Shown: positions 15,986 to 45,058, numbered from the stretch's first letter. The stretch: DNA of 64,000 nucleotides from Myxococcales bacterium (GCA_012517325.1 JAAYVF010000074.1:13701-77700); one strand, 5' to 3'. Program-made: numbers and translations. Notes: generated by a model from the letters alone, not told the origin.

Positions 15986-17368
15986 TCAACAACCGCAAGC
16001 GTCGTCGTCTGCACCGGCTGAAGACTTCTGCGCGGGCGACGATGTGTCGTCATCATCGGCCTGGGTGTCGTCATCGTCGTCCGGCGTGTCGTCATCGGAG
16101 GTATCGTTGTCGTCGTCATCGTCCGCGCCGGAATCATCATCGTCGTCGGTGGCGGCCTCGACGGTGAACGCCCCGGCCAACGAGGCTTGCTGGCCCAGCG
16201 AACCTACCAGCACCAGATCGTAAACGCCGGCCGGAATCGTCGCGGGTAACTGGGCTGTCGCCTCGGCGGCGGAAAGCACCGTCACTTGTTCGAGCGAAAT
16301 CAAATCGCCGCCGGCTACCGTGAAATAGGCCTGCACATCGGCTTCGAAACCTTGACCAGAAATGCTCACCGCCGTTGCGGCCGAACCCGCTGCCGGCTCG
16401 ATTTTTTCCGGGGTCGGCACGCAAGTCCGCCAGAGTTGCACGGTGCGCGATCCGTCCGGTTCGTCCGAACGGCAGCCGCCCGCCAGCACCACCCCGTACC
16501 CCGGCAAATACGCGGCGGCGGGAGCCACCAGCGCCCGAGCGATCTGCGTTCCCGTATCGCTCCATTGAGCGGAAAAATAATTTTCGTCGCCGCTTTGGAG
16601 TTCCTGCCAGCCATTGCCGCCCGCCGTCAGCCAAAGCAACTCGCCGGCCGCGATCAACGCCGGCCGGTTGCGCCCCAGCGGCGAATCGACGATTTCGTAC
16701 GTGTCGGCTTGCGGATCGTAAGCGAAGGTCGACGAATCCTGCATCCACCCGCCGGTGAGGTAAATCGATCCCTGCAGCGTCGCGGCGGCGCCGTAGACCT
16801 TCCCGGCGGGCAACGGCGCGATCGCCGTCCATTGATCGGCACCGGGGTCGTACACATAGGCGGCGGTCACCGCGGTCAAGCCATCGGAAGTGCCGCCGAA
16901 ACAATAGAGGCGCCACTCATGCTCGGCGCACATCACTCCGGCGATCGGGATCGGATAGGGAGTCACGATTTCCCACTCGTCCGCGTCCACCGCATAACGA
17001 AAAACGGTCGAGACGATTCCGTCATTGAACCCCCCGACCGAAAAAAGGTGGTCCTCGACCGCGGCGTTGCCGAAATCGCTTTTCGCAAAAGGCAGGTCGG
17101 CGCACCAGGACCAGGTTGCGAGATCCGGATCGAAGACCTGGCAGTCCGAACGATAGGTTGGCTCCGCGTTATCCACTCCGCCGAAAAGGTAAAATTTCCC
17201 CTCCGCCACCGCACCGCCGGCTCCGTATCGTTCGTTGGTGAATGAGGGCCAGTCGGATTGCCAGCCGATCGTGCAGAAATCGGCACTCGCCGCCGTCGGA
17301 CCGCCGAAACGGAAGCACGCCAGGAACAGCGCGATCCCGATGATTGCGGCGAAACGGCGATCGGTCAT
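15986..17368 (-). CDS. Exported Kelch-repeat propeller + IPT/TIG domain protein with Asp-rich tail ending in CGC
   Basis: Six GG-containing Kelch blades (YLFGG, FSVGG, YCFGG, YLTGG, LTAGG, VLAGG); TIG-like PTPEKIEP...SISGQGF; tail ...DDDACGC-stop. Confidence 0.85.
   Translation of the reverse strand: MTDRRFAAIIGIALFLACFRFGGPTAASADFCTIGWQSDWPSFTNERYGAGGAVAEGKFYLFGGVDNAEPTYRSDCQVFDPDLATWSWCADLPFAKSDFGNAAVEDHLFSVGGFNDGIVSTVFRYAVDADEWEIVTPYPIPIAGVMCAEHEWRLYCFGGTSDGLTAVTAAYVYDPGADQWTAIAPLPAGKVYGAAATLQGSIYLTGGWMQDSSTFAYDPQADTYEIVDSPLGRNRPALIAAGELLWLTAGGNGWQELQSGDENYFSAQWSDTGTQIARALVAPAAAYLPGYGVVLAGGCRSDEPDGSRTVQLWRTCVPTPEKIEPAAGSAATAVSISGQGFEADVQAYFTVAGGDLISLEQVTVLSAAEATAQLPATIPAGVYDLVLVGSLGQQASLAGAFTVEAATDDDDDSGADDDDDNDTSDDDTPDDDDDTQADDDDTSSPAQKSSAGADDDACGC
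16047..16147 (-). repeat. Asp-rich low-complexity coding tract
   Basis: Encodes DDDDDSGADDDDDNDTSDDDTPDDDDDTQADDDD before the CGC terminus. Confidence 0.9.
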
Positions 17369-17461
17369 GGGTTCCCCTTTTCAGGAAGATCTGGTGAACG
17401 GTTTTTACCATAATGTGAATAACCTGAACAAGAAGGAACTCGGGGGCGGCCAATGGCGCCG

Positions 17462-17490
17462 AAAAAAGGCAACCCCGTTCGGGTTGCCTT
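17462..17490 (-). terminator. Intrinsic terminator after the lipoprotein gene at 17520-18215
   Basis: Minus strand: AAGGCAACCC-GAACG-GGGTTGCCTT-TTTT, a perfect 10 bp stem followed by a U-tract. Confidence 0.8.
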
Positions 17491-17519
17491 ATCGGTTTCG
17501 CGAAGCGCGCTTCGGCGCA

Positions 17520-18215
17520 TCAAAGAGGCGTGAAAACGATGTCGAAGGAAGTACGCAGTTTGATTTCCAAATCCGGGTCCAGGCTCTCGATGCCGTGCGT
17601 CGGGACATTCAGCCGCAGGCAGAAGGCGAAGGGCGCGTCGAAATCGAGCATCTGCTCGCCCAACTTCTCCTGGCCCTTGGGCGAGAAATCGGCGTTCGCC
17701 CAATCGCTGACGTTCGTGCCGGCCGGGATGTCGACCGAAGCGACCAGATCGCTGTTGGCCAGCGAATCCGGCTCGACGATTCGCCACATCAGGGAGTCGA
17801 TTCCCAGGTCATCGAGATTGACCCCACCGCGCAAGCCCATCGCCGGCGGCAGGGTCTCCACCATGAACAGGTCCAACGTGCCGCCCTGGCTGATGTTGTC
17901 CCGAATCTTGGATTGGATGTTCTTGACGTTGATTTCGCTGATGTTGCCTTTCACCGTTTCCCACATATCGGCGTAGTCGGTGACCGACATCAAATCGTTG
18001 ATGCTTAACGCCTCGGCATAGCAGACGGCCGTCAAGGAATAATCCTGATAGGCCAGGGCGAAAAGCGGCGTCCAATCCTCGGTGATATCCAAGGTGAACG
18101 ATTCCGTTTTTTTCGTCTTATCATTGATTTCGTCCTTGATCGTATCGCAAGCCGCGAGGCTTAAAAATAAAACGACCGCCCAAATCAACCAAGCTCGATG
18201 GATCGGGGATTTCAT
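17520..18215 (-). CDS. Lipoprotein of unknown function
   Basis: ATG 18215 after a GAGGGAGGA RBS; lipobox LAAC; terminator downstream. Confidence 0.8.
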   Translation of the reverse strand: MKSPIHRAWLIWAVVLFLSLAACDTIKDEINDKTKKTESFTLDITEDWTPLFALAYQDYSLTAVCYAEALSINDLMSVTDYADMWETVKGNISEINVKNIQSKIRDNISQGGTLDLFMVETLPPAMGLRGGVNLDDLGIDSLMWRIVEPDSLANSDLVASVDIPAGTNVSDWANADFSPKGQEKLGEQMLDFDAPFAFCLRLNVPTHGIESLDPDLEIKLRTSFDIVFTPL

Positions 18216-18432
18216 CAAATCCTCCCTCGGTTAAATCGTTGATGCCGACCCGCCGCTTAATAATAAAGCGAACCAGGGCTTCTGGCTAGGGGTTTTCCGC
18301 GGCGGACGCAAAACCCGGCTTTCAGCTTGCGAAAACCGGACAAAGGCGGAAGAATTTTTCCGTGGGAGCTGTTTTTCATCGACTTGTTATGAGAATTTAC
18401 CGAATAAACCTGAGTAACACCTGGGGATAAAC

Positions 18433-18903
18433 ATGAAGGTCGACTACGTCAATCCTTTCCTGAACGGGATTCTCAACGTGCTCGCCACCATGGCGATGAT
18501 CGAGGCGGTTCCCGGCAAGCCCTACTTGAAAACCGGCGAAACCGCCAAAGGCGAGGTGACGGGATTGATCGGTCTGGCCAGTCCGGAATTGAAAGGATCG
18601 TTGGCGATCAATTTCACCAAGGGCGCGATCCTGAGAATCGCCGAGGCGATGCTCGGCGAGCATTTGACCGAAATCGATGCTACCGCCCTGGATGTCGCGG
18701 GCGAAATCACCAACATGGTTACCGGCGGCGCCAAACGCGAATTGTCCGAAAAAGGCTACAAGTTCGACATGGCCCTGCCGACCATCGTCAACGGCATCGA
18801 ACACTGCATTTCGCACGGCACCAAGGCGCCGACGATCGTCGTCCCTTTCACGATCGAAAGCGCGGGCGAATTCTACGTCGAGGTCAGTTTCGAGGAGCGC
18901 TGA
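18433..18903 (+). CDS. cheX: Chemotaxis phosphatase CheX
   Basis: YVNPFLNG, GEVTGLIGL, GSLAINF and GEITNMVTGGAK (E-x2-N phosphatase motif), then LPTIVNG. Confidence 0.92.
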   Translation: MKVDYVNPFLNGILNVLATMAMIEAVPGKPYLKTGETAKGEVTGLIGLASPELKGSLAINFTKGAILRIAEAMLGEHLTEIDATALDVAGEITNMVTGGAKRELSEKGYKFDMALPTIVNGIEHCISHGTKAPTIVVPFTIESAGEFYVEVSFEER

Positions 18904-18910
18904 CCCGCGC

Positions 18911-21529
18911 TCAATCGACGGTCACCGTCCCCGCTAAAAACGTATCGCGGATCCACAAATTGCCGGCGGTCGAGTCATAGAACCAACCGCTCGCCGCGGC
19001 GTCCCATTCGACATAGCTGGCGTATTCCGTCAACGCGCCGGCTGGTCCGGTGACGGTGCTCGGCGCGCCGCCGTCGTAAGTCGCCGGCACCGCCCGCAGC
19101 GAATAGGTCCGCGCCAGGGGCGCGCCCGAAACTGTCAGCGTGAATCCGCCGCCGCTCTGCGCCAGGGCGAACGCGGTATCGTCTTCCAGGGTGAACGAGG
19201 AATTGCCGTACGGATACAGTTCCACCCACAATAGGTCGGCGACATCGGTGTGATCGATCACCTCCGGATTGTCGGTCGGCCAGAGCGTTTCCACCGACGG
19301 ATCGAGCAAGGGGATGATCGCGCCGGCCTTGGCATAGACCGGGATATCTTCTTGCGGCACGTCGCGGGTGAAATTGTCGGGGCCGTCGTAGACCTCGTTG
19401 GTCCAGTAATCCACCCAGCGGTCGGCGGGCAGGTAAATGTCGCGCTCGAACTGATCGTGCAGATAAACCGGCTCGACCAGCAGCCAGTCGCCCAGGAGGT
19501 AATCCCAGTTGCGGTCGTAGGTGATCGTGTCGTCCAGGTAAACCAGCGGCAGCATGCGCATGATCGGGTGGCCGGTCAGCGTCGCCTCGCGGGCGTAGGC
19601 TTTCATGTACGGGAACAGCCGGGTGTGGATGACGGCGTAGCGACGGTAAACGTCTTCCATCGGCGCCGCGTAATGTTCCCATACTTCCTGCGCGCCGTTC
19701 TTCGGGCTCTCGAAAATCGGCCGAAACGCCGAATGCGCCGTCCATCGCATCAACAGTTGCGGATCGTCGGCGTCGTAACTGGCGAAGCCGCCGTCATTGG
19801 AACCGTAGTAGGGGAAGCCCGCCGTGCCCAGCGTCAGACCGCCGATGATATCGGCCGGCAAACCCAGGGCGAAGCTCCAATCGGATTCCATATCGCCCGG
19901 CCAAAAATAATTGATGTGGGTCTGCTCGCCCCAGACGGCGGTGCGCACCGTGCAAACGCCCAGCCCGCCGTTGTATTCCTGGGCCAGTTCCCAAAAGAGC
20001 TGGTGGTAGGCCCATTTGTACTCGTACTGTTCGGTCATGGCGTCGCCGAAATCGCCCAGGTTGAACGCATTGGCCGGCCACAAGCCCAGCGTATCGGCGC
20101 CGATGTACTCGCCGCCGTCCATCTTGAACCCTTGAACACCCATGTTCATCACGTTGCGCACCAAGTCCTGGTACCAGGTGTAGGCATTCGGGTTGAGGAA
20201 ATTGACCATGGCGCCGTTGTCGTGCCACCAGGGGTATTCGTAGAGCAGGCCGAGGATGGACACCAGGTAGCCGTTATCCTTGGCGAAATTGAATTGCGCC
20301 GAGTTGTCCTCGATCATTCCCGGCACTTCCACCGGCGAAACGCGGTTCACGAACTCCGCCGTCCAGAGATAAAACGCGTATCCCTGATCGTGAACGTAGT
20401 CGATGACCGCCTGGGCGTCGCTGAACTGGCAACCGGAGGGGCATTCGTTGAAGACGAACGTGCTGTATGAGGTTTGCCAGGGCGCGTCGACCATGATCGA
20501 GGAGGTCGGAATGCCGTGCTCGCGCAAAGCGTCGGCATCGGCATAGACCTCGCTCTCCGAATTGTTCACGTTCCGCCAATGCAGGTGCCCGAACAGGTAA
20601 TCGGGGTTCATCGGCGGACGGCCCGTCACGCCGGTGTAATTCTCGATGATGTCCAGCGGCGCCGGCCCCCAAAAAACGTGCGTCGTCAGTCGGTCGGTGT
20701 AGTATTTATAGCCGTAAGCGTCGTCGCGGGTGTAACCCATGTCGAAATAGCCCCGCCCCTTGTCTTCCACAAACAAGCCGTACCCGCGCGAGGAAAAATA
20801 GAACGGCATCGGCGCATGATTCTGAATCTGGTCCGTCAGGTCGACGCCCAGACCGACGAACATCGTGCGAATTTTACCCCGTTGATCGATGTCGTCGTAT
20901 TGCAGGCCCAGGCCGAAGAAGTGCTCGTCGGCGTCCAGCCGGTAACCGCCGGAGTAGTATTTGACCTCCTCTACTCCCGTCGCCGTCGTCGAAAAAACGA
21001 GGTGATTATCGGCGGCTTTTTCGAAAATCAGCGTTAGCCCCGCCTCGCGATTCCGCTCCTGCGTATTGACGGCCCGCACGTTGACGGTCCAGGTATCGCC
21101 GTCCTGCGACCAATCGAGCACTTCGGCGGCGTAATACCAGTTGTCGCCGAAATTCCCGGCCTGAAAACCGTGCGGCAGAAATGGCATGGGCGAGAGGTTC
21201 AGCGCTTTTTCCGGCTCGTTGGTCGCCAGCAAGGTCTGGCTGTCCGGACCGAGGATTTCGAGATAGTAGGGATTCAAGCGGATGTGCACGGACATTTGGC
21301 CGGCCGGGATCGTCAACCACTCCGGAGTGGTGTCGTCGTTGTCGTCGTTGTCATCGTTGTCATTGTCATCGTTGTCGTCGTTGTTGTCGTCGTTGTCGTC
21401 GTTGTCGTTGTCGTCATCGTCGGTCGGCGCATTGCCGGAATCATCATCGTCGTCATCCGACCCGCAGGAAACCAACAGGAAACCGAACGAGATCAGCAGG
21501 ATCACGATCAACAACCGAAACGATTTCAT
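18911..21529 (-). CDS. Glycoside hydrolase family 31 lipoprotein with Asp-rich linker
   Basis: ATG 21529; lipobox LVSC; Asp/Asn tract; FFGLGLQ, GFKMDGGE (nucleophile Asp), WPGD (acid/base Asp), RWTAHSAF, HPIMRML, YLLGDWLLVEPV and IPVYAKAGAIIP. Confidence 0.9.
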   Translation of the reverse strand: MKSFRLLIVILLISFGFLLVSCGSDDDDDDSGNAPTDDDDNDNDDNDDNNDDNDDNDNDDNDDNDDTTPEWLTIPAGQMSVHIRLNPYYLEILGPDSQTLLATNEPEKALNLSPMPFLPHGFQAGNFGDNWYYAAEVLDWSQDGDTWTVNVRAVNTQERNREAGLTLIFEKAADNHLVFSTTATGVEEVKYYSGGYRLDADEHFFGLGLQYDDIDQRGKIRTMFVGLGVDLTDQIQNHAPMPFYFSSRGYGLFVEDKGRGYFDMGYTRDDAYGYKYYTDRLTTHVFWGPAPLDIIENYTGVTGRPPMNPDYLFGHLHWRNVNNSESEVYADADALREHGIPTSSIMVDAPWQTSYSTFVFNECPSGCQFSDAQAVIDYVHDQGYAFYLWTAEFVNRVSPVEVPGMIEDNSAQFNFAKDNGYLVSILGLLYEYPWWHDNGAMVNFLNPNAYTWYQDLVRNVMNMGVQGFKMDGGEYIGADTLGLWPANAFNLGDFGDAMTEQYEYKWAYHQLFWELAQEYNGGLGVCTVRTAVWGEQTHINYFWPGDMESDWSFALGLPADIIGGLTLGTAGFPYYGSNDGGFASYDADDPQLLMRWTAHSAFRPIFESPKNGAQEVWEHYAAPMEDVYRRYAVIHTRLFPYMKAYAREATLTGHPIMRMLPLVYLDDTITYDRNWDYLLGDWLLVEPVYLHDQFERDIYLPADRWVDYWTNEVYDGPDNFTRDVPQEDIPVYAKAGAIIPLLDPSVETLWPTDNPEVIDHTDVADLLWVELYPYGNSSFTLEDDTAFALAQSGGGFTLTVSGAPLARTYSLRAVPATYDGGAPSTVTGPAGALTEYASYVEWDAAASGWFYDSTAGNLWIRDTFLAGTVTVD
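21332..21457 (-). repeat. Asp-rich low-complexity coding tract
   Basis: Encodes DDDDDSGNAPTDDDDNDNDDNDDNNDDNDDNDNDDNDDNDD after the lipid-Cys. Confidence 0.9.
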
Positions 21530-21764
21530 CTTCCCCTCCCGAAGCGGATTTTTCATTTTCTGGGAAACCGGCCGACCGCCGAGATCGGTGGAAACAAAAC
21601 ATAGCACGATACTTCGCTCTTTTCGAGACAAGTCGCGCGGCCGGCGGCTGACGGTAACCGCGCCGGAAGCGCCCGGATCGCGGAAAAATGACCGCGCGCC
21701 TTGCGCGAGCGGGCCAAGTCTACCAGAATGGTTCGACGCACATCATCCGAAAGAGGGAACAACG

Positions 21765-22802
21765 ATGACCCAAATCAAATTGGCTCCCGCTCCCGAAATG
21801 CTCATCGGACCCGAAGGTAAACCCCGGTACGGCAATTTCGCCGGCTCGATCCGCACCCTGAACCTCGACGACTTCGATTACCGATCCCTCCGCCGTCCGC
21901 CCTGGACCTGGACCCGGGACCTGGCGCGCCAGTTGCTTAAACGGTGGCAATTCGTGGGCGTGGTCGACGAGCACTTCGTTTTTGGCGCGGCCGTCGTTCA
22001 CGTGAATTACCTCGGCACCGGTTTTACCTACCTTTACGACCGCCGGACCAAGACGATCGTTCACGAAGAAATCAAAACGCCGCTGGCTGTGCGTACCTGT
22101 TTCTCGCCGACCGCGGTGGACGGAGTGAGCGAAATCCGCCAGGGCGCGAAGTCGATTTTCATGGACAACACGGTGCGCGACGGGCGACGCGAGGCCGCCG
22201 TGGATTTTGGCGACAAGCTCTCGGCGAAGGTCGCTTATCGTGAAAACGGCACCGGCGTGACTTCCGTGATCCGGCAATCGCTCTATGGGTTCAACCATAC
22301 CTACAAAGCGGCCGGATTGCCGGCTTTGGGGAGCTTTAAATTCAACGGTCAAGAATACCAGTTTTCCGATCGGGCGCTGGCGCTGATCGACTGGACCGTC
22401 GGCACCCCGCCGCGGGAAACGATCTGGAACTGGGCGGCCGCCATGGGCCGGGATAAGAAAGGCCGGATCCTCGGGCTGAATTTCGGTTCCGGCTTGAACG
22501 AATACGGCTTCACCGAAAATACGGTTTGGCTGGACGGCAAGCCGTTCATGTTTGCCGGGATTTCCTTCGAATACGACTCTTTCGACATTATGACCCCTTG
22601 GCGGCTCCTGAGCACCTTCGACGATGCGGTGGATCTGAACTTTCGCCCGGAGCACGAACGCTTCGAGCAGATCTACGCCGGCATCGCCTCCAGCCGTCTG
22701 CATCAACCGTTCGGTTTGTTCAACGGCCGCCTGGCACTGGGGTCCGAAAAGTTGAATGTCGAAATGTACGGATTCTGCGAAGAGCACTACGCCAAATGGT
22801 GA
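21765..22802 (+). CDS. DUF2804 family protein
   Basis: GAGGG RBS and ATG 21765; LKRWQF, WNWAAA, GLNFGSG, TENTVWLDG, HQPFGLFNG and GFCEEHYAKW. The longer upstream ORF extension is antisense to the Asp tract. Confidence 0.85.
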   Translation: MTQIKLAPAPEMLIGPEGKPRYGNFAGSIRTLNLDDFDYRSLRRPPWTWTRDLARQLLKRWQFVGVVDEHFVFGAAVVHVNYLGTGFTYLYDRRTKTIVHEEIKTPLAVRTCFSPTAVDGVSEIRQGAKSIFMDNTVRDGRREAAVDFGDKLSAKVAYRENGTGVTSVIRQSLYGFNHTYKAAGLPALGSFKFNGQEYQFSDRALALIDWTVGTPPRETIWNWAAAMGRDKKGRILGLNFGSGLNEYGFTENTVWLDGKPFMFAGISFEYDSFDIMTPWRLLSTFDDAVDLNFRPEHERFEQIYAGIASSRLHQPFGLFNGRLALGSEKLNVEMYGFCEEHYAKW

Positions 22803-22870
22803 GTTTCGTTATCCGTAAGTATCAATAAAATACCCTTCCAAAGATTGCGTTGAATCATCACTTTTTACCC

Positions 22871-22899
22871 TTGCAAAGATATAGGAACGGTATTATACA
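22871..22899 (+). promoter_or_regulatory. Candidate sigma70 promoter
   Basis: TTGCAA-N17-TATACA in an AT-rich gap upstream of the ORF at 22959. Confidence 0.4.
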
Positions 22900-22958
22900 T
22901 TTCTTTGTAGTCGGGGAGGCACAATTAGCCGATTTGATAGACAATACAGGATTGGGCA

Positions 22959-23219
22959 ATGAATATGGGTTGGCTTATTAAAAAAGGGGCGAACAAGAAA
23001 GAAACGACTTCGGCCAGGCAAAAAATGATTGTCTGCCCTGTATGCAAGGGTCACCGCGTTATTCGCACTCAACCCCAAGAAGTGTTGCCATGGGATCGCG
23101 TCATGAGCGCCGGGAATCATCGCGTCGCCATGGTGGAAACCACTTGTTGGGCTTGCCACGGCGAAGGCCGTGTACCGGCGAATCAGGGCGATTACGTCAA
23201 CGATCGTTTCAGTCGATAA
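22959..23219 (+). CDS. Small protein with DnaJ-type zinc-finger half-sites
   Basis: CPVCKGHR and CWACHGEG motifs; occupies an otherwise empty intergenic gap; candidate promoter upstream. Confidence 0.65.
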   Translation: MNMGWLIKKGANKKETTSARQKMIVCPVCKGHRVIRTQPQEVLPWDRVMSAGNHRVAMVETTCWACHGEGRVPANQGDYVNDRFSR

Positions 23220-23447
23220 TCATTTCCGCTTAGTCGAATTCCTTCAAACTGAAACCCTAAATGGACGCGCGGTTATCGCAAATGGAATGCGTTTATTCCG
23301 TCGACAAGAAGTATTCTGAAGTCGATAAAATGCCTCCGGAACCGAGCCCGTGACCGTGCGCGAAGTCTACTGGAAGGCTGGAATCTTTCTCAAACCGAAG
23401 GTAGATTCAGTCCGGCGCAGACAGAAAACAAACCGGAGAAAACCATC

Positions 23448-24365
23448 GTGCCGAACGACACCACCAAGCGCTATGCGCTCGAAGACGACCGCATCCTGCC
23501 GACCGACGAATTGAAAAAAATCATCAAATTGGAATTGTCCAAGTGGCTTTCGTCGGACAAGGACGCCGACCTGCCGATGCTGCCACACATCGCCGCGCAA
23601 GCCGTCGTCCTGATGAACAATCCGCAATCGTCGATCACCGAGGTCGCCCAGTTGCTCGAACAGGACCAGGTTCTCGCGGCGCAGGTGATCAAACTGGCCA
23701 ACAGCCCCTTCTATCGCTCGATCAAGGACGTGACGACGCTGTCCCGCGCCATCCTGGTCATCGGCCTGCGCAGCGTGCTCGATCTGATTTTCTCGATTTC
23801 CCTGCAAGGCAAAGTGTTTCGCCATCCGCGTTATTCGGCGCGGATGTCCGCTTTGTGGCGGCATTCGATGGGCGCCGCCTACATCTGCCGCGAGATCGCC
23901 AAAGGGATCAACGCCAACGTGGACATCGCCTTTTTATTCGGCCTGCTCCACGACATCGGCAAACCCCTGATCATCGACACCCTCACCAAGCTCAGCCAGA
24001 AAAATCCCGATCAGATCTCGCTGAAGCTGATCGACGACACACTGCTCGATGAGATTTTGGATGAATTTCACTGTTCGGTCGGCGGCTTGATCGCCCGGAA
24101 GTGGGGCTTCCCCGACAAACTCCGGATGGCGATCGTCTATCACCACGACCCGCTGGCCGACGGGAAGGTGCACAAGGGTGCTCTGGTGACGGGCCTGGCG
24201 GATCTCTTCTGCCATCGGTTCGGCATCGGCGTGCCGCCGGTCGACCGCGATTTCTCCGATCATCCCTGGTTGCAACCGCTCGGGATCGATTTCGCCACGT
24301 ACCTGGCGCTCGACGAGCAATTGCGCGACGAAACGCAGGCCTTTCTCGAACAGTTTTCGTTCTAG
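23448..24365 (+). CDS. Stand-alone HDOD domain protein
   Basis: LPMLPHIA, DQVLAAQVIKLANSPFY, LWRHS, FGLLHDIGK and IVYHHDP. Confidence 0.9.
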   Translation: MPNDTTKRYALEDDRILPTDELKKIIKLELSKWLSSDKDADLPMLPHIAAQAVVLMNNPQSSITEVAQLLEQDQVLAAQVIKLANSPFYRSIKDVTTLSRAILVIGLRSVLDLIFSISLQGKVFRHPRYSARMSALWRHSMGAAYICREIAKGINANVDIAFLFGLLHDIGKPLIIDTLTKLSQKNPDQISLKLIDDTLLDEILDEFHCSVGGLIARKWGFPDKLRMAIVYHHDPLADGKVHKGALVTGLADLFCHRFGIGVPPVDRDFSDHPWLQPLGIDFATYLALDEQLRDETQAFLEQFSF

Positions 24366-31273: not shown

Positions 31274-31277
31274 GCGC

Positions 31278-36692: not shown

Positions 36693-36693
36693 A

Positions 36694-37453: not shown

Positions 37454-38401
37454 ATGGGCGAATTGATCATCATCACCAACCCGCACGCACGGCAAAATTC
37501 GAAAGACCCCGAACGATTCGAGCGTTTCCAGCGAATGGTCGGCGATCAAGGCACGGTTTACCAGACGCAGCAACTCGATCAGCTCGAACAAACCTGCCGC
37601 CAATTATTGACCAAGGAGATCGATCTCATCGCCATCTGCGGCGGCGACGGCACCAATCACCTGGTCACCACCGCCCTGATCCGGACCTTTCAGGAAGCCG
37701 CGCGCCCCCTGCCGCCCCTGACCTATCTGAAGGGCGGCAGCATGAACACCATCGCCTGGGGGCTCAATATCCGCTGCCCGGCCGAGAAAGTCCTGACCCA
37801 TCTGCTTCAGGTCCGACAAGCCGGCCGGCCCCTCGCCACGCAGCGACAGGGCACCCTGCACATCAACGACGCCTACGGCTACTTTTTCGGCAACGGCTAT
37901 GCGGTGAATTTTCTCGAGGAGTATTACAACGCCAACAGCACCAGCGGCCCGCGTCGCGCCGCCGAAATCACTTACAAGGCCATCGGCGCCGTGCTGTCGC
38001 GCAACGAGATGCACCAGCGGCTGGCGCGCAAATTCGAGGCCGAGATTCTAGCCGACGGCAAACCGCTCGGCTTTCCGGCCTACGGCATGATCATGGCCGG
38101 ATTCATCGAATACATCGGCATCGGCTTCAAGCCACTCTATCGCGCTCACGAACGCGAAGGCCATTTTCACCTGGTGGCCACCGGCTTCAATCCCGGCCGG
38201 ATTCTGGCGCAGATTCATCGTTTTTATACCGGCAAGCCCCTGATCGGCCCGCACCACTTCGACGACCTGGTACAGGATCTGCAAATCCGGGGCGCCGCGC
38301 CCATCGGCTATACGATCGACGGCGAACTTTACCGCAATGAGACCACGATCCATCTCCGTCCCGGGCCGACGCTGGATGTCGTGGTCGATTCGCCGCAGTG
38401 A
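37454..38401 (+). CDS. Diacylglycerol kinase-like (DAGK_cat) protein
   Basis: IITNPHA, CGGDGT, LKGGSMNTIA and YTIDGE. Confidence 0.88.
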   Translation: MGELIIITNPHARQNSKDPERFERFQRMVGDQGTVYQTQQLDQLEQTCRQLLTKEIDLIAICGGDGTNHLVTTALIRTFQEAARPLPPLTYLKGGSMNTIAWGLNIRCPAEKVLTHLLQVRQAGRPLATQRQGTLHINDAYGYFFGNGYAVNFLEEYYNANSTSGPRRAAEITYKAIGAVLSRNEMHQRLARKFEAEILADGKPLGFPAYGMIMAGFIEYIGIGFKPLYRAHEREGHFHLVATGFNPGRILAQIHRFYTGKPLIGPHHFDDLVQDLQIRGAAPIGYTIDGELYRNETTIHLRPGPTLDVVVDSPQ

Positions 38402-38402
38402 T

Positions 38403-40229
38403 ATGACCCGGCGACCGTCGGCCCGATCCGCGCGATTCGCCGCGACGTGGTTGCCACCGTTATTGCTCTTGCTGCTGACCGGCGCCTGCTACCTCAACGC
38501 GCTCGCGGCCGGTTTCGTCTGGGACGACCTCTCGCAGGTACGCGACAATCCGTATCTCCGCTCACTGCGCTGGGTGCCGGAAATTTTCACCCGCGACCTG
38601 TGGATCACGTCGGGCAGCGCCGAATTCTCCGGCTACTACCGGCCGTTGCAAAACCTTTCCTACGCGCTGGATTACGCGCTCTGGGGAAACCGGCCGTTCG
38701 GTTTCCACCTCACGAACCTGTTGTTGCATCTAGCGGTCTGCCTGTTGCTCTATGGGCTGGTCCGCCGGCAGGGTTTCGGTCCGCCGGCCGCCTTCGTTTT
38801 CGCCGCGGTGTTCGCCGTTCACCCGTTGCACGTCGAGGAAGCGACCTTCATCGGCGGGCGCGGCGGTTTGCTGTCCGCCGTTTTTCTCTTCGGCGGCCTG
38901 GCCTGGGTGCAACATGCTCTGCGACAATCCGCGCGGCTGTTCGCGCCGGCGACGGCGGCGTTTCTGTCCGTTTTCCTCGCCTTCCTGGCCAAACCGCTCG
39001 CTTTGTTGTTTCCCGTGGTGTTGGCGGCCGCGCCCTGGGTCGTCACCGCCGCGGAAAGTACGGCGGTCAAAATCCGCCGCTCGGCGGGACTGCTGGTGGC
39101 CGGGGGTTTGGCGGCCGGCGCGGCGTTCAGCATCCCCTACCTTTTTTTGCAAGTGCGTTTCGGCGATGCCGTGCCCGGTTCGTCCCTGTCGGGCGCCCTC
39201 GTCCGGCTGCCGGCGATCGTCACGGCCTACCTGGTGAAAATCTTTTTCCCGATCGGATTGGCGATCGATTATCCGCCGCCCGACTACGGCCAGCCACCGG
39301 CCTGGATCGCCCTGTTCTGGATCGCCCTGATTTTATTGCCGCTCGCGATCGCCGCGTTCGGCCTGGTTCATGGCCGGCGCTGGGCGTTCTGGCTTTTATT
39401 CGCGCCGCTTTTGCTTTGCCCTCTGGCCGGATTATGGAGCGGCTATTTCGTCGTCGCCGACCGCTATGCCTATCTGCCGGTCGCCGCATTGGGGGCGCTT
39501 CTCGCCTGGCCCCTGGAAGCCGCCGGGGAAAATCTCCGGCGGCGGACAGCCGCTTTGTCGCTGGCGATGATCCCGGTTCTGGCCTTCGGCGTCCTGACCA
39601 TCGCCCGCAACAACGTGTTTCTGAACCAGGACACGTTCTGGGCCGCCGCCGAACGCGCCGCGCCGCTACGACCCAAGGTCGTCGAGGGGGTCGCCGCCCG
39701 ACTCGCGCGACAGGGCCGCCTGGCCGAAACCATCGCTTATCTGGAAGCGGTCACGGCGCGGCTTCCCGACAACGCGAATCTTCGCCTCGAACTGGCGATG
39801 TATTTGTTCGACGCCGGCCGGACTGACGAATCGCAGCGGCTGACCGAGGCGGTCGTGCGGGAAAAGCCGCACCTCGCCAAGGCGCTCTGGCACCTCAGCC
39901 AGTTGTCTTTTGCCCGCCGCGATTATCCGACCGCGCTGCGCCTGACCCGCCGGCTCCTAGCTGAAAATCCACGCGACCTGGACGCGCTGGTTAACCTCGC
40001 GGTGTTGCTGAAGTTGGCCGATCAACCGCAACAAGCGCTGGCTGCGCTGGACGACGTGCTGGCCCAAAGCCCACTGCACGGCCTGGCCAATCTTTACAAG
40101 GGCATGATGTTGTTCGAAGCGGGACGACGCCGGGAAGCGATCGTTTTTCTGCGGCAAGGCCTCGCGGCGAACCCCGGTCACGCCAAAGCGCAAGAAATGT
40201 TGCGGGAAGCGGAAACGGGCGGGATTTAG
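38403..40229 (+). CDS. TMTC-like membrane glycosyltransferase (GT-C fold) with C-terminal TPRs
   Basis: FVWDD, YYRPL, FHLTNLLLH, AVHPLHVE, about 10 TM segments, ADRYAYLP and TIARN, followed by TPR helices. Confidence 0.82.
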   Translation: MTRRPSARSARFAATWLPPLLLLLLTGACYLNALAAGFVWDDLSQVRDNPYLRSLRWVPEIFTRDLWITSGSAEFSGYYRPLQNLSYALDYALWGNRPFGFHLTNLLLHLAVCLLLYGLVRRQGFGPPAAFVFAAVFAVHPLHVEEATFIGGRGGLLSAVFLFGGLAWVQHALRQSARLFAPATAAFLSVFLAFLAKPLALLFPVVLAAAPWVVTAAESTAVKIRRSAGLLVAGGLAAGAAFSIPYLFLQVRFGDAVPGSSLSGALVRLPAIVTAYLVKIFFPIGLAIDYPPPDYGQPPAWIALFWIALILLPLAIAAFGLVHGRRWAFWLLFAPLLLCPLAGLWSGYFVVADRYAYLPVAALGALLAWPLEAAGENLRRRTAALSLAMIPVLAFGVLTIARNNVFLNQDTFWAAAERAAPLRPKVVEGVAARLARQGRLAETIAYLEAVTARLPDNANLRLELAMYLFDAGRTDESQRLTEAVVREKPHLAKALWHLSQLSFARRDYPTALRLTRRLLAENPRDLDALVNLAVLLKLADQPQQALAALDDVLAQSPLHGLANLYKGMMLFEAGRRREAIVFLRQGLAANPGHAKAQEMLREAETGGI

Positions 40230-40798
40230 CGTCGACCTTCTTTTTCAGCGAGCCGCTTTTCCAGTTCCTCGATGCGGCCTTCGAGTTCCGTCAGATCGCG
40301 GTTGAGCGAGGCCATCGATTTGAGCAGATCCATCAGTTCCGTCACTCGCTCGTCGATCCGCGAGTAAACCTCTTCCAGGCCTTTCTGACCGCCGGCGAAC
40401 AGGTCCGTCAACATGCGCTTGCCCTCTTCGGGCTCGAGCTTACCGCGTTTGACGAGGCGGTTGACGTACTTGTCCATTTCACGGCGGGCCTGGGAGAAAC
40501 TGTGCAGGCCCGGAATGATGTGGCGATCGACGAAATCGCTGATCGACTCGCCGCTGGTGGCGATGATCCGTTTGAGCGCGGTCAACGGCAGAATGCTCTT
40601 CTGCTTTTTTTCTTCCTCGAAGATGATCTGGGTCAGCGTCAGGCTCGTCAGGTCTTTCTTGGATTTGTTGTCGACCACCTTGACGTCGATCCCGGCCTTG
40701 ATCATTTGGGAGATGTCGTCCAACGTCACGTAGGCCGACGCTTCGGTGTCGTACAATTTGCGGTTTTGATACCGCTTGATGATTCGCGTTTTCGACAT
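40226..40798 (-). CDS. Polyhydroxyalkanoate synthesis regulator-type DNA-binding protein (PHB_acc_N) with phasin-like C-terminus
   Basis: IIKRYQNRKLYDT...YVTL...VKVVDNKSKKDLT...LTQIIFEEE; coiled-coil C-terminus. Confidence 0.85.
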   Translation of the reverse strand: MSKTRIIKRYQNRKLYDTEASAYVTLDDISQMIKAGIDVKVVDNKSKKDLTSLTLTQIIFEEEKKQKSILPLTALKRIIATSGESISDFVDRHIIPGLHSFSQARREMDKYVNRLVKRGKLEPEEGKRMLTDLFAGGQKGLEEVYSRIDERVTELMDLLKSMASLNRDLTELEGRIEELEKRLAEKEGRR

Positions 40799-40824
40799 GA
40801 CCCACCCTTCCTTGAAGCTGCGCT

Positions 40825-40854
40825 ACAGTATTCCCGGACGATTCGGCAAGTCAA
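40825..40854 (-). promoter_or_regulatory. Candidate sigma70 promoter for the PhaR-like gene
   Basis: Minus strand TTGACT-N18-TACTGT, ending 26 nt before the ATG. Confidence 0.4.
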
Positions 40855-40870
40855 GCGACGAGGCCGCTGT

Positions 40871-42094
40871 TCACCGGCCGCCCGCCACTCGGACGCCGTC
40901 CACGCAGGCATAGGGAATCGTCAGCGTCAGACCGTCCGCCGCGGCGGCCAGCCGGTCGAGGCGTTTTTCCAATTCGGCGAAAACTTCCGTGCGGCGTTCG
41001 GCCGACACGATCTCCCGCCAGGTGGGAATGAACGCCAACCGCCAAAAACCGTGCGCGAACAGGGCTTGCGCCCCGGAAAATCGCCAGGTGAACTGGCGTT
41101 CCGCGACGCCGGTGATGTCGAAACCGGCGCGACGCGCCCGGTCCAGCATCCAGGCCAGCGGTTTGCGCTTGGAAAAAATGTGCGCCGGCAGGCGGTCGAG
41201 GCCGGCGGTGTCGCCGGATTCCTTCAAGATCGCTTCCAACGTCCGGTATACCTCGGTCATGCTCTCGGGCAGATTGAACGTGAACACCAACTGCGCGCCC
41301 GGCCGGGCGACCCGCGCGCATTCGGTCAGCGCGCGTTCCGGGTCCGCCACGTTGTTGAAGCCGTTGTTGGAAACCAGTAAATCAACCACGGCGTCGGCAA
41401 GCGGGATCGCCTCGGCGCGACCCTCGAGAAGCCGCACGTTGCCGACCTGCCAGGCGCGCAACTTCCGGCGAATGCGCGGCCAGCCTCCAGTCCACGGGTC
41501 CAGGCCGATCACCCGGCTGCCCGCGCCCAACCGTTGCGCCAACTCGACCAGCGGAAAGCCGGCGCCGCTGCCGATATCAAGCGCGAGGATATCACGGCGC
41601 AGCCGCACGGTTTCCAGCAGCGTCAGGCCGAACGGCGCCGACCAGAGCGGCAGATCGTCGTAGGCCTCCACGTCGAATTTTTCCGGCGGGGTTCCCTCGA
41701 GAACTTGTCCGGGAGCGCCGGCGGATGTTTCGGCCGCCTCGCGGCGCACCAGTTCCGGGCTGAACGCCGGGCAACAGACCGCCACGTATTCGGCGCCACC
41801 CGGTCCCGGCGTGAAATAGCGGATGCGGTTGCCGCGTGGCGCGACGATCGCCTGCCCCGGACCGGCGACGAGAATCCCGACATTCGTTTCGGCGCGGACT
41901 TCGCCGCGTAACACCACCGTGTATTCGTCGAATTCCGGCGTTTGCGCCGGCTCGCTCCAACCGGACGGGCTGACCATCCGCGCGACGCTGACCGCCGGGT
42001 TCTCCGTCGCCAACCGGCCGATGTATTCCTCGATCGTCTTGGGCGGCTCACCCGCGGCTTGCGCCAAGACCGGCGTCACTACTCTTGGTTTCAT
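40871..42094 (-). CDS. Cupin domain fused to class I SAM-dependent methyltransferase
   Basis: N-terminal IEEYIGR...SVARMVSPSGWSEPAQTPEFDEYTVVLRG...PAFSP (cupin); C-terminal LPLWSAPFG, LDIGSGAG, GLDPW and VSNNGFNN (methyltransferase). No stop between the two parts. Confidence 0.85.
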   Translation of the reverse strand: MKPRVVTPVLAQAAGEPPKTIEEYIGRLATENPAVSVARMVSPSGWSEPAQTPEFDEYTVVLRGEVRAETNVGILVAGPGQAIVAPRGNRIRYFTPGPGGAEYVAVCCPAFSPELVRREAAETSAGAPGQVLEGTPPEKFDVEAYDDLPLWSAPFGLTLLETVRLRRDILALDIGSGAGFPLVELAQRLGAGSRVIGLDPWTGGWPRIRRKLRAWQVGNVRLLEGRAEAIPLADAVVDLLVSNNGFNNVADPERALTECARVARPGAQLVFTFNLPESMTEVYRTLEAILKESGDTAGLDRLPAHIFSKRKPLAWMLDRARRAGFDITGVAERQFTWRFSGAQALFAHGFWRLAFIPTWREIVSAERRTEVFAELEKRLDRLAAAADGLTLTIPYACVDGVRVAGGR

Positions 42095-42139
42095 CGAAGG
42101 ATTGGTCCTCCCGCCGCGACATCCTGTCGGAAAAGGCGG

Positions 42140-45058
42140 TCAACAGCCGCAGCTTCCCGACGACGAATCATCGTCGTCATCCGGAGTCGGCTCCGGGCCC
42201 GACCCGGAATCGTCGTCGTCATTGTCGTCGTCGTTGTCGTCACTGTCGTCGTTGTCGTCGTTATCGTCGTTATCATCGTTGTCGTCATCGACACTATCGT
42301 CGTCATCATCGTTATCGTCATCATTATCGTCGTCATCGTCATCGTCATCGTCGCCGGCCGACAGCAGGAAATCCATCGCCGCACCCAAAACCTGTTCGCG
42401 GAACTCCGGCGAAAAAATCGTTTCGAACGGAAAACCCAGGTAGATCACCTTGAAAACGCCCGTATCGGCGACGACCGCCGCGCCCGCCCCGCCGTTGTAG
42501 GTCAGGTCGGTGAAACCGCCGGCGAGCGCTTGCACGACGTCCGGGTAATCGGCGGCGTAAATGGCATACGCGTCGTAGTCGAAATCGAACGACTCGATGC
42601 CGGCAAAAATTCCGCTCGGGTCGACGCGCCCCACGCCGCTCGAATCCGCAACGTACTCGGCGCGCAGATAATCGGCGTAAAAGAGCCGGTCGGCCGCCGA
42701 CCCCATCTGCCAGAGATCCCAGCCGATTTCCGAACCGGAGATGAAGAGCGCGCCGCCATCGTCGAGGTACTCCGCCAGCCGGGCTTGTTCAGCGGCCGAC
42801 AACGAAACATCGGCCGTCGATTCCTCGCCGGCGATCCAAAGCACCGCCGGATAATCGGCCAGCGACACCGCGCCTGCCGCGACCGCCTCGTGGTCGGCCG
42901 AATCGAAATCGAGGCCGGCCGCGGCCAGCGCCTCGGCGTAGGCGATCATGTAATCGAAGGAATTCATCCGCCACAGATAGCCGCGTTCGATCGTGCCGCC
43001 GCCGTAGTAGGCCTCGGGCACGTTCGCGAAACGGTCGAGCCGATCGAAGCCGTTGACCAACAGCACGCGCGGCGCGTCGCCGGTGGAAAAAACCAGGGTC
43101 GGGGTCGGAAAGCTTTCGCCGCCGTCGTTGAACGCCGTCAGCCGGACGAAACGCACCGCGCCGTTCTCCAGGGCGCCGCGTGGCGCGAGCGTCACCAGGG
43201 TGTCCTTGGTCTCGACGGCGTCGCTCTGACCTTTGCCGGTCCGGCTCAGGTAGGCGCGATAACCCGTCGCCGGATCGCCGGCCAGGCCGCCGTAGTCGTA
43301 ATCCGGCGGCTGCCAGGCGGCAACGGCCTCGCCGTCGATCCATTGCACCGTCAAGGCGCGCGGCGGCTCGGGCAGGAAGTGCGGCGTCTCCCCGTCGCGC
43401 GCCGCGAAGTAGCGGACGGCGCCCTGATAAACCGCGCGCGCCACCAACTGGCGAAACGCCGGCTCCTTCAATTGCAACGCGTCGGCGGGCGTGTCGTGAA
43501 ACGCCACCTCGACGATGATTCCCGGCGTCTCGTCGTTGTAATTCGGATTGATCTCGCCGTACCAGTTGGTGTGCTCGCCCAGGTCGATCCATGACGCCGA
43601 CCAGCCGGCGCGGATGTCGGCCACGATTTCATCGTGGATCGCCGCGCGCAATTCCAGACTGCCCGGCACGCCGTCGAACGCGGCGTCCCAACCGCCGGAG
43701 GCGTAGGCGAAGGTACTGGTGCCGCTGCCCGGATCGGGGGCGTTGGTGTGCCAACTGATGTAGATGCCGTCCTCCCAGGCTTCGTTTTCCCACTTCACGT
43801 AACGCGGCATGGTGGTGACGGTATTGGTGACGCATTCCGGGCAGCCCATGAATTCCGCCTGGTACATCCCCGACATTTCCCAGCGCGGCTTGCCGGAATC
43901 CGCCGGCGTGCCGCCGCCGAAACGGACCGCGTCGGCGATGACGACCTTGTTGGTATCGCCGCCCTCGTTGGAGATCGTCACCCGGCGAGCGGCGGGCGGA
44001 TCGTCGCGCAGAAAGTAGAAGCGTCCCAGATCCTTCCAGGTGAAGCCGTCGCGCTGCTGGTTGACGGCCAGGATCGTGTCGCCGTCGGCGTGGTGAACCG
44101 TGACACGGCAATCGACGGCTCGGTTGGCGCCGGCCGTATACCAGAGATACACGTGGTAGAAACCGTCGGCGGGAATCTCGGCCACGAAGTCGGCGGTGGC
44201 GCTTTCGGTCGCGGCGACCTGTACCGCCAGATAATCCTCGCCGTAGTAGCCGGGCGTGCTCGTCGACGACCACCACGAACCCGTGCTGGAAAAGCCGTCG
44301 TCCAGATTGTCGACGACAACCATCGCGGGATTCAGATCGCCTTCGCGCACCGGATAAACACCGGCGCCGGCATTCCACAGGTAGGGCAGCAGATATTGAA
44401 AAACCGCTTCCGCGTTGGAAAAGTCCTCGACGAGGCCGTTGGTGTTTTCACGCTGGGTCACCCACGCGCCGAGATCTTCGTTGTAATACCACCCATGGCC
44501 GGGAGAAAGAAAAACACTTTTCCCGGACAGAAAACCTGTCGGCTGCGGCTGGCCGAAACCCGGAGGCCGCGCGTTTTTATCAGCGGTTTCGTTCGGCTTG
44601 GCGCCGACCGGCGCGGGAGTACGGACCAGGCGGCCGATCGGCTCGTAACCGCGGCGCGGATCGTCGCGCGCCATCACCTTCGCCGGCACGCCCGGCGCGA
44701 CGGACCGCATCGTCGTTCCGAGGGCCGCCATGAAGCGATCCGATACGGCCTCATCGGGCCGCGCGGCGAATCCCGGCGGCATGGTCAGAAAGAGCGTCCA
44801 GCCGGACGCGTCGCGCGCCAGACGATCCATTTTTGTACCGGCGGGAAAAAACGAGCGATAGCCGCGACCGCCTTGCACAAGCAGCCGTAAAAGGCTTTCG
44901 ACGTCGGCGGCGCTTCGCCCGTCGAAGGTCGGCGCCAGACAAACGGGCCGACCGCGATCGGACAAGACGACGCAGGCCGATCCGCCGGCGGACGACACCC
45001 TTGCCGCCGGAACCAGAAAAAGCAGCAATAAAATGGTGAGGAAGATCGACTTTTTCAT
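42140..45058 (-). CDS. Exported multidomain N-acetylmuramoyl-L-alanine amidase with Asp-rich tail ending in CGC
   Basis: ATG 45058; SPase I-type signal; amidase_3 Zn/catalytic motifs SPGHG, EDFSNAE, SWHTNA and IVEVAFHD; golvesin-like insert and FN3-like domain; tail ...DDDDDSSSGSCGC-stop. Confidence 0.85.
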   Translation of the reverse strand: MKKSIFLTILLLLFLVPAARVSSAGGSACVVLSDRGRPVCLAPTFDGRSAADVESLLRLLVQGGRGYRSFFPAGTKMDRLARDASGWTLFLTMPPGFAARPDEAVSDRFMAALGTTMRSVAPGVPAKVMARDDPRRGYEPIGRLVRTPAPVGAKPNETADKNARPPGFGQPQPTGFLSGKSVFLSPGHGWYYNEDLGAWVTQRENTNGLVEDFSNAEAVFQYLLPYLWNAGAGVYPVREGDLNPAMVVVDNLDDGFSSTGSWWSSTSTPGYYGEDYLAVQVAATESATADFVAEIPADGFYHVYLWYTAGANRAVDCRVTVHHADGDTILAVNQQRDGFTWKDLGRFYFLRDDPPAARRVTISNEGGDTNKVVIADAVRFGGGTPADSGKPRWEMSGMYQAEFMGCPECVTNTVTTMPRYVKWENEAWEDGIYISWHTNAPDPGSGTSTFAYASGGWDAAFDGVPGSLELRAAIHDEIVADIRAGWSASWIDLGEHTNWYGEINPNYNDETPGIIVEVAFHDTPADALQLKEPAFRQLVARAVYQGAVRYFAARDGETPHFLPEPPRALTVQWIDGEAVAAWQPPDYDYGGLAGDPATGYRAYLSRTGKGQSDAVETKDTLVTLAPRGALENGAVRFVRLTAFNDGGESFPTPTLVFSTGDAPRVLLVNGFDRLDRFANVPEAYYGGGTIERGYLWRMNSFDYMIAYAEALAAAGLDFDSADHEAVAAGAVSLADYPAVLWIAGEESTADVSLSAAEQARLAEYLDDGGALFISGSEIGWDLWQMGSAADRLFYADYLRAEYVADSSGVGRVDPSGIFAGIESFDFDYDAYAIYAADYPDVVQALAGGFTDLTYNGGAGAAVVADTGVFKVIYLGFPFETIFSPEFREQVLGAAMDFLLSAGDDDDDDDDDNDDDNDDDDDSVDDDNDDNDDNDDNDDSDDNDDDNDDDDSGSGPEPTPDDDDDSSSGSCGC
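42167..42352 (-). repeat. Asp-rich low-complexity coding tract
   Basis: About 60 codons dominated by GAC/GAT/AAC/AAT before the CGC terminus. Confidence 0.9.

Follow-up and report, generated by a model that had tools for sequence, protein, structure and literature searches.

Two genes in a 64,000-nucleotide stretch of DNA deposited as Myxococcales bacterium (GCA_012517325.1 JAAYVF010000074.1:13701-77700; the whole stretch is hereafter called the window) encode otherwise unrelated exported proteins that both end in a long aspartate-rich tract followed by Cys-Gly-Cys and the stop codon. The same ending recurs on exported proteins of a single clade, where it is conserved; its signature is common with that of the MYXO-CTERM sorting signal, and it mirrors, and in one family swaps with, an N-terminal arrangement of lipobox and poly-Asp. 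Such a tail is very probably a sorting or retention tag of some kind. With somewhat better than even confidence, we propose more specifically that the Asp tract and terminal Gly-Cys-Gly-Cys form a C-terminal tag that serves sorting and anchoring throughout Lernaellota and whose Cys would be covalently anchored, most likely by a lipid.

Two unrelated window proteins with the same C-terminal tail

The Kelch/TIG protein, made of four Kelch repeats and one TIG domain (Pfam: Kelch_1, 3.5e-25; TIG, 4e-4), ends in ...TSSPAQKSSAGADDDACGC (longer stretch ...DDDDTSSPAQKSSAGADDDACGC). The second protein, which the original prediction had called an amidase, does match Amidase_3, albeit below threshold (24.7 bits for a cut-off of 27), and its solid domain is Golvesin_C (Pfam, 2.4e-30); we refer to it as amidase-like. 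Its C-terminus reads ...PEPTPDDDDDSSSGSCGC (longer stretch ...GPEPTPDDDDDSSSGSCGC). The last four residues are ACGC and SCGC, respectively, and the dimensions of both acidic tracts are given in the table. As had been predicted, neither a hydrophobic helix nor a basic tail follows: a TGA stop codon comes directly after the last Cys in both genes. Nor is there room for such additions, because the neighboring genes abut both stops. The convergent histidine-kinase gene ends at 15983, three bases off the stop of the Kelch/TIG gene, and the gene downstream of the amidase-like open reading frame (ORF) starts at 42094, 46 bases past its stop.

The two proteins share no detectable homology (best BLASTP E = 0.31). 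Both have signal-peptide-like N-termini (MTDRRFAAIIGIALFLACFRFGGPTAASA in the Kelch/TIG protein and MKKSIFLTILLLLFLVPAARVSSA in the amidase-like protein), as judged by our own hydrophobicity heuristic rather than by SignalP; these have signal peptidase I-type ends (AASA, VSSA) and no lipobox of the form [LVI][ASTVI][GAS]C. According to the window's own amino-acid frequencies, the chance of a CGC end is 6.7e-6 per protein, which translates into 3.3e-4 such ends expected among 49 window genes and a probability of two or more of 5e-8. Among 2689 ORFs from control loci of other phyla (1.35 Mb), none ended in CGC. An AlphaFold2 model of the Kelch/TIG protein was poor (mean predicted local distance difference test, pLDDT, of 57) and was used solely for the absence of secondary structure past residue 403. 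The last strand ends at this residue and residues 404-460 are coil, which, given the shallow alignment, is weak evidence; the block-mean pLDDT is 60 at residues 401-410 and 39-49 from residue 411 on.

Distribution, cargo and host lineage of the tail

The ending is not confined to these two proteins. Two DNA-pattern scans were carried out on one genome per species of the Genome Taxonomy Database (GTDB), and all counts that follow are lower bounds. Both patterns demanded a terminal CGC, and the second one a GCGC (DDDDGCGC, no stop specified). Among the matches listed, in-frame Asp-rich ORFs ending in CGC and a stop codon came from nine metagenome-assembled genomes (MAGs) only, namely JAOSJX01 (labelled FEN-1099), DAIMDW01, DAIPLW01, DAINPV01, CAZQAE01, CAZEDX01, CAXXWT01, CAYSHR01 and CAZPJD01; the remaining matches listed were out-of-frame chance occurrences, Myxococcota tails, or His/Cys/Asp-rich metal-binding regions. 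The sample consists of the window and of ~0.67 Mb around matches from these nine related MAGs. It contains at least 104 tagged ORFs, 2 in the window and at least 102 in the sampled MAG sequence (at least 28 in DAIMDW, at least 21 in DAIPLW, at least 19 in DAINPV, at least 16 in JAOSJX, at least 5 in each of CAZEDX, CAXXWT and CAZPJD, and at least 3 in CAZQAE). Tagged genes are often adjacent, and several loci have two or three of them side by side.

In an alignment of 78 otherwise unrelated tagged proteins, C-G-C is the invariant core. Tails end in GCGC in 78 of 104 cases, a share inflated by scan patterns that required CGC or GCGC, and in CCGC in 7 of 104; the commonest ending is D-G-C-G-C, with CCGC, SCGC, ACGC and CCG as variants. 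The tract has a median length of 42 residues and a maximum of ~100, consists of Asp at 59%, and follows a period-5 DDDxx rhythm; the last 30 positions of the tail average 0.15 basic residues and ~1.2 hydrophobic ones. The clade has almost no Asp-rich tails that lack the Cys at the end, so that tract and Cys motif behave as one module.

Conservation of the tail extends to orthologues of both window proteins. The Kelch/TIG orthologues P0001 (95% identity) and P0002 (43%) end in ...ACGC and ...DDDDDDDDSCCGC, respectively. Of the ten full-length homologues closest to the amidase-like protein (55-65%), eight have an Asp tract that leads into a final GCGC, SCGC, CGCG or CCG, the two exceptions being P0016, which has extra residues (…RECGCGNL), and P0018, which is devoid of the tail. 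No such tail is present in amidase homologues from other phyla (at most 49% identity). Several of these distant homologues have at the same position a Pro/Thr linker, a hydrophobic helix and basic residues; no curated model matched those tails and no named sorting domain could be assigned to them. In Candidatus (Ca.) Alcyoniella australis, the amidase orthologue ends in ...NECCG and the adjacent FG-GAP protein in ...AVCCG, that is, in CCG rather than CGC. A profile built from nine aligned tails had 0 matches among 1.84 billion representative proteins, a null result that is uninformative on prevalence because the profile is of low complexity.

Two further loci deserve a separate mention. In Ca. 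Alcyoniella australis, a small prepilin-type N_methyl protein is encoded just upstream of two adjacent tagged genes (L323:9594-14227, JAVCCG010000093). Two neighboring Kelch-type tagged ORFs of JAOSJX (L034:2653-5301, minus strand, JAOSJX010000022), one of which ends in ...GGRCGC, have no recognizable N-termini and look like frameshifted pieces or assembly errors.

Tagged proteins are enriched for export signals. Signal-peptide-like N-termini were found in 18 of 23 tagged ORFs with complete N-termini compared with 55 of 131 further ORFs from these loci (p = 0.0014), according to a crude heuristic with a background of 42%; most of the failures are frameshifted fragments or contain runs of N. 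Pfam domains detected in 78 tagged proteins include PKD, S8 subtilases, M14, M28 and gingipain-type C25 peptidases, FG-GAP, sortilin/BNR, Kelch, purple acid phosphatase and GH43. This cargo is typically extracytoplasmic and usual for surface-sorting systems, and it fits the abundance of secreted degradative enzymes reported for Lernaellota, a phylum known from anoxic lake water and anaerobic digesters (PMC9324843).

Judging from its genes, the window itself belongs to Lernaellota (FEN-1099). Its NusA shares 76% identity with the Ca. Lernaella stagnicola protein and 79% with the one from DAIMDW, the next relatives being at 59-68%, and the gene order rimP-nusA-infB-rbfA-nrnA-truB-rpsO-pnp-dut-nfi-phaR is shared. 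The host is diderm, since the window encodes LpxC. In a sister lineage (NusA 63%), probably the home of the amidase homologue P0027, this homologue is untagged and the neighboring lipoprotein has no Asp tether, in what is a small sample. Between nfi and phaR, the window has two genes (37454-40229, plus strand), one diacylglycerol-kinase-like and the other encoding a multi-helix TPR protein. In DAIMDW, in Ca. Lernaella and in the contig that carries NusA P0140, nfi and phaR are direct neighbors, and the segment looks like an insertion specific to the window's genome.

MYXO-CTERM and the N-terminal mirror image

MYXO-CTERM (TIGR03901) consists of a signature with an invariant Cys, generically GCGC, which lies after a disordered region and precedes a transmembrane helix and an Arg cluster. 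According to the working model, the Cys is lipidated, the myxosortase MrtX, a CPBP/Rce1-type intramembrane protease, cuts distal to it, and type II secretion brings the protein to the surface (10.1101/2023.06.07.544157; PMC11980579). The comparison drawn in the original prediction is therefore apt, GCGC being the generic signature of MYXO-CTERM, placed before the helix. The scan for DDDDGCGC, which was free of any stop requirement, separated two classes of tails. In the clade MAGs, a stop codon follows GCGC immediately (at least 65 ORFs); in MAGs of Polyangiaceae, Kofleriaceae, Nannocystaceae and other Myxococcota, GCGC leads into 25-34 residues of helix and RRRR. The latter score 25-36 bits on TIGR03901.2 (cut-off 20 bits). 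Window tails and model GCGC tails found no match at E <= 10 in NCBIfam release 20, TIGR03901.2 included, hence the tail is described by no existing hidden Markov model of that release. Three of the outcomes that the original prediction had named as refuting it (an ending limited to two proteins, no enrichment for export signals, an existing model) were checked, and none was borne out.

Like MYXO-CTERM, the clade tail is located at the C-terminus of signal-peptide proteins, dozens per genome, after a low-complexity disordered region, and its invariant Cys is often doubled. It also ends exactly where cleavage "distal to the lipidated Cys" is proposed, i.e., at the proposed mature end. Unlike MYXO-CTERM, it has no transmembrane helix and no Arg cluster and calls for no endopeptidase, its linker is nearly pure poly-Asp, its host is a member of Lernaellota rather than of Myxococcota, and the curated model is blind to it. 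Lacking the helix, the Arg cluster and the model score, the clade tail is not a member of the MYXO-CTERM family; most plausibly, it works like the mature end of a MYXO-CTERM.

The clade nonetheless contains tripartite tails. An M10 peptidase of DAIMDW (L165:2364-3743, plus strand, DAIMDW010000011) ends in ...DDDDDDGCGCVVGGEGGDAALVWLLLTLATAFLLLRKKATR, which scores 28.5 bits on TIGR03901.2. Since this tail passes the MYXO-CTERM model, full and helix-free forms coexist in DAIMDW with the same Asp tract and GCGC, and outside of Myxococcota, to which MYXO-CTERM has been described as restricted. A second protein (L209:753-1922, minus strand, DAINPV010000036) carries GGSGGCGG followed by a helix and RRKK, and matches no model. 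No paralogues of these two proteins with helix-less tails were found in the sample. Asp-rich linkers followed by GCGC, a helix and RRR also occur in MAGs labelled "uncultured Rickettsiales" (L181 and L182 of CAZXHG01; L148 of CAYTBN01), with L181 at 28.9 bits on MYXO-CTERM; either these bins are mislabelled or MYXO-CTERM extends beyond Myxococcota.

The tail also has a mirror image at the other end of proteins. Lipobox-like N-termini run directly into poly-Asp in 32 of 62 cases in the clade compared with 0 of 244 at control loci (examples are ...LVACGDDDDDNDND, ...FLGCGDDDDDDNDDD and ...LVSCGGDDDDNDNDD; further loci include L122, L185, L205, L208, L217, L219 and L225 among others). The clade thus uses "Cys-Gly-(Asp)n-domain" N-terminally and "domain-(Asp)n-Gly-Cys-Gly-Cys" C-terminally. 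Four proteins of the window follow the N-terminal scheme, a GH31 glycosidase and three of no known family. The two forms rarely occur together: both were seen in 2 ORFs, the N-terminal form only in 29, and the C-terminal form only in 59. One family switches between them. In three genomes, its members begin with a lipobox and an 80-residue Asp tether, ahead of the domain; in a fourth genome, the signal peptide is an ordinary one, and the homologous domain (33% identity over 445 aa, E = 1e-63) comes before poly-Asp and GGCGC. In Ca. Alcyoniella australis, an N-terminal Asp-tethered lipoprotein is encoded near the tagged amidase orthologue. Mirror image and swap provide the strongest indirect support for the terminal Cys acting as an anchor and the Asp tract as its tether or export signal.

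For surface export in Bacteroidota, it is enough that a few acidic residues come behind the lipidated Cys (C-S-D-D-D-D; K-(D/E)2) (Lauber et al., 2016, PMC5080379). As in this export signal and in classical lipoproteins, which are processed by Lgt, LspA and Lnt, the Cys of the clade tail adjoins an acidic stretch and a Gly precedes the Cys, as it does at position -1 of the lipobox; moreover, the same poly-Asp follows the lipobox Cys of the clade, and homologous cargo uses either end. The differences are equally clear: the Cys of the tail is C-terminal, no hydrophobic signal-peptide core adjoins it, there are two Cys residues instead of one, and the tract is 20-100 residues long rather than 3-5. 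We know of no transferase that acts on such a C-terminal Cys end.

Interpretation, rival explanations and neighboring features

A modified Cys, the lipid nature of its modification, the cellular destination of the proteins and the enzyme at work are all inferences. Tagged proteins would cross the inner membrane via Sec by means of their ordinary N-terminal signal peptide. The poly-Asp tract of 20-100 residues would remain unfolded and serve as a tether, while one or both terminal Cys thiols would gain a covalent membrane anchor, most likely a lipid, as predicted for the Cys of MYXO-CTERM. Membrane helix, Arg cluster and myxosortase-type cleavage would all be dispensable because the protein already ends at the Cys. 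The acidic stretch beside the modified Cys may double as a surface-export signal, as it does in lipoproteins of Bacteroidota.

The search for a sorting enzyme was conducted at two levels. Pfam analysis of 41 window genes revealed no CPBP, sortase, exosortase, rhomboid or Lgt, in agreement with the absence of a sortase-like gene noted by the original prediction. Multi-helix proteins encoded near tagged genes are transporters, TatC, a PMT_2 glycosyltransferase and one YhfC protease, and when 590 clade ORFs were clustered all against all, no family without the tag turned up repeatedly next to tagged genes other than through plain synteny. The gene of the YhfC-family intramembrane metalloprotease (L235:5652-6461, minus strand) is convergent to a tagged gene, ~150 bp off; it is a single case, not recurrent in the sample. 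The S-adenosylmethionine (SAM) methyltransferase gene at 40871-42094, directly downstream of the amidase-like gene, was considered as a source of a carboxyl-methylating partner and rejected, because its product bears no signal for export and the two genes are not neighbors in Ca. Alcyoniella.

Several points weigh against a lipid-anchored, lineage-wide tag. There is no candidate enzyme in the window or recurring beside tagged genes. It is not obvious how a soluble, highly acidic C-terminus could reach a transferase embedded in the membrane, for example Lgt, whose lipobox substrate is itself membrane-held. Poly-Asp could be the general linker of the clade near either terminus, unrelated to any lipid. 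The signal-peptide statistic is weakened by the crude heuristic and its 42% background, and the Lernaellota-wide extent is in part extrapolated. Finally, lipidation of the MYXO-CTERM Cys is itself a prediction (10.1101/2023.06.07.544157; PMC11980579).

Among the alternatives, we consider retention without any covalent bond to be unlikely. Poly-Asp would bind Ca2+, Mg2+ or Fe and bridge the enzyme to lipopolysaccharide, exopolymer or mineral, while the Cys pair would cap the tract as an internal disulfide or metal ligand, and no modifying enzyme would be needed. The high Asp content, the DDDxx period of 5 and the scarcity of basic and hydrophobic residues in the last 30 positions suit cation binding; neither the window nor the surroundings of tagged genes yielded a dedicated enzyme; and the presence of such a tract at N-termini as well suggests that it may have an independent role. 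At N-termini, however, the tract always follows a predicted lipidated Cys. Simple cation binding also leaves unexplained the invariance of C-G-C and its strictly terminal position, the near-absence of Asp tails devoid of Cys, the identity with the MYXO-CTERM signature and the co-occurrence with full MYXO-CTERM. Two close thiols on a flexible arm at the extreme C-terminus could instead form a disulfide or thioester hook, by which the CxC motif would be coupled to a Cys-bearing partner in the outer membrane or S-layer, or to other tagged proteins, resulting in a cross-linked, lipid-free surface layer. The loci with two or three adjacent tagged genes would fit this improbable scenario. Nevertheless, no recurrent partner gene was seen among the 590 clustered clade ORFs, the exchange for an N-terminal lipobox speaks for anchorage in a membrane and not for a protein partner, and stable extracellular disulfides are less likely in Lernaellota because their reported habitats, lake water and anaerobic digesters, are anoxic (PMC9324843).

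It is a little less probable still that the tails are decayed MYXO-CTERM signals, in which stop codons removed the helix, so that the enzymes would be freely secreted and GCGC would have no present function. A single stop codon indeed turns the full form into the helix-free form, and the clade retains a few full tripartite tails (L165, L209). Neutral remnants, however, would neither hold C-G-C invariant in 78 unrelated proteins or across orthologues of 43-65% identity, nor always stop exactly after the Cys, and the CCG variant is fixed in another genus. Recoding of TGA after CGC, as selenocysteine or by read-through, would place the real C-terminus further on, and we give it practically no credence. 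All 31 tagged ORFs of the first scan end in TGA, but the pattern of that scan itself required TGA. In the unbiased scan, TGA is still in excess (41 of 65 compared with a background of 41% in other ORFs of the same loci, L121-L236; p = 8e-4, window genes excluded); nonetheless, TAA (15) and TAG (9) are used at the same site, which refutes recoding. Furthermore, the downstream sequence is unconserved, a second stop follows at once in five cases, and the next genes abut in the window.

Returning to the lipid-anchored tag, a bolder version of it can be put forward tentatively, as a possibility that we hold to be somewhat less than even. Lernaellota would put a lipid or other covalent anchor on one or both thiols of a free C-terminal Cys-Gly-Cys, on the extracytoplasmic side, with no helix and no protease, and poly-Asp would be a bidirectional surface-export and tether signal. 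If true, the tail would correspond, in bacteria and outside the cytoplasm, to the doubly lipidated Cys motifs of Rab proteins, and would be a MYXO-CTERM "pre-cleaved" by nature. It would imply an undescribed periplasmic or outer-membrane Cys transferase, and Cys modification of MYXO-CTERM-type tags would be independent of helix and myxosortase.

Rab proteins undergo double geranylgeranylation at C-terminal CXC, CC or CCX motifs, and CAAX processing involves Rce1 and ICMT. The clade endings CGC, CCG and CCGC resemble Rab motifs in their position at the extreme C-terminus after a disordered tail, and myxosortases are relatives of Rce1. Rab modification is cytosolic, whereas the clade proteins carry export signals, and the likeness is one of form only; no prenyltransferase was found, although no search aimed at one was made. 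In its cargo classes, the tail matches LPXTG/sortase, PEP-CTERM/exosortase, GlyGly-CTERM/rhombosortase and the JDVT-, Synerg- and CGP-CTERM signals. It also occupies the position of tripartite signals, as illustrated by the distant amidase homologues that have a linker, a helix and a basic tail there. Unlike the clade tail, those signals all comprise a helix and a cluster of basic residues and rely on a dedicated enzyme for their cleavage, and none has the signature motif as its end.

To our knowledge, all prokaryotic C-terminal sorting signals assigned to a sorting enzyme are tripartite (motif, membrane helix and basic tail) and have their motif cut by a dedicated enzyme. The clade tag breaks this rule by keeping only the Cys motif, which must therefore carry the function alone. 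What is unusual in this proposed Cys-based C-terminal sorting signal is that nothing but the motif is kept, as the last residues of the protein. A literature search for the tail, including GCGC, aspartate-rich and Lernaellota as terms, found no description, which is not proof that none exists. The myxosortase papers leave open which group is attached to the invariant Cys and which enzyme does so (10.1101/2023.06.07.544157; PMC11980579), and the helix-free tail bears directly on this question. A natural substrate that needs no cleavage would uncouple modification from proteolysis and provide a naturally occurring test of the way in which such tags attach proteins to cells. The N-terminal mirror image suggests that acidic tracts beside an anchoring Cys may be a general surface-export device beyond Bacteroidota. 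In practical terms, the tail amounts to a simple regular expression that would mark surface and secreted degradative enzymes in a poorly known phylum of anoxic sediments and anaerobic digesters, and that current annotation models miss.

Coordinates of tagged proteins and N-terminal Asp-tethered lipoproteins in the window
Feature	Position	Strand	Basis or remark
Exported Kelch(x4)+TIG gene, 460 aa, C-terminal tag	15986..17368	-	ORF, Pfam
Kelch/TIG signal-peptide-like N-terminus (MTDRRFAAIIGIALFLACFRFGGPTAASA)	17279..17368	-	Hydrophobic-core heuristic
Kelch/TIG acidic tether, residues 408-457 (50 aa, 26 Asp)	15998..16147	-	Sequence
Kelch/TIG terminal Cys-Gly-Cys codons TGC GGT TGT	15989..15997	-	TGA stop 15986-15988
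Exported Golvesin_C/amidase-like gene, 972 aa, C-terminal tag	42140..45058	-	ATG 45058; upstream TTG 45088 possible
Amidase-like signal-peptide-like N-terminus (MKKSIFLTILLLLFLVPAARVSSA)	44969..45058	-	Heuristic
Amidase-like acidic tether, residues 903-969 (67 aa, 42 Asp, 8 Asn)	42152..42352	-	Sequence
Amidase-like terminal Cys-Gly-Cys codons TGC GGC TGT	42143..42151	-	TGA stop 42140-42142
GH31 glycosidase, lipobox ...FLLVSC (Cys 21464-21466), poly-Asp tether 21320-21463	18911..21631	-	Pfam GH31, sequence
Lipoprotein, no Pfam family, lipobox ...VFSFSC (Cys 10260-10262), 63-residue poly-Asp tether 10263-10451	10119..11186	+	
Lipoprotein, no Pfam family, lipobox ...GLTGC (Cys 6395-6397), Asp-rich tether 6398-6517	6239..7582	+	
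Small lipoprotein, lipobox ...FLFLAC (Cys 9993-9995), short Asp/Ser tract 9957-9992	9414..10082	-	

The GAY-rich DNA of the tethers gives rise on its antisense strand to long spurious ORFs rich in Val, Ile, Ser and Arg (41942-43594, 42085-42453 and 21282-~21930, all on the plus strand). Antisense sequence of this kind contains the listed start of a DUF2804 gene (21282); because the Pfam match begins only at residue 219, the gene probably starts near 21900 instead. Elsewhere in the window, a gene at 51227-52822 (plus strand), directly after that of a GT4 glycosyltransferase (48719-51223), encodes a 531-residue protein of no Pfam family with ~6 predicted helices, which may act as an enzyme on envelope glycans. 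At 58827-63983 (minus strand), a TPR protein of very large size, at least 1718 residues, is encoded and reaches the window edge.

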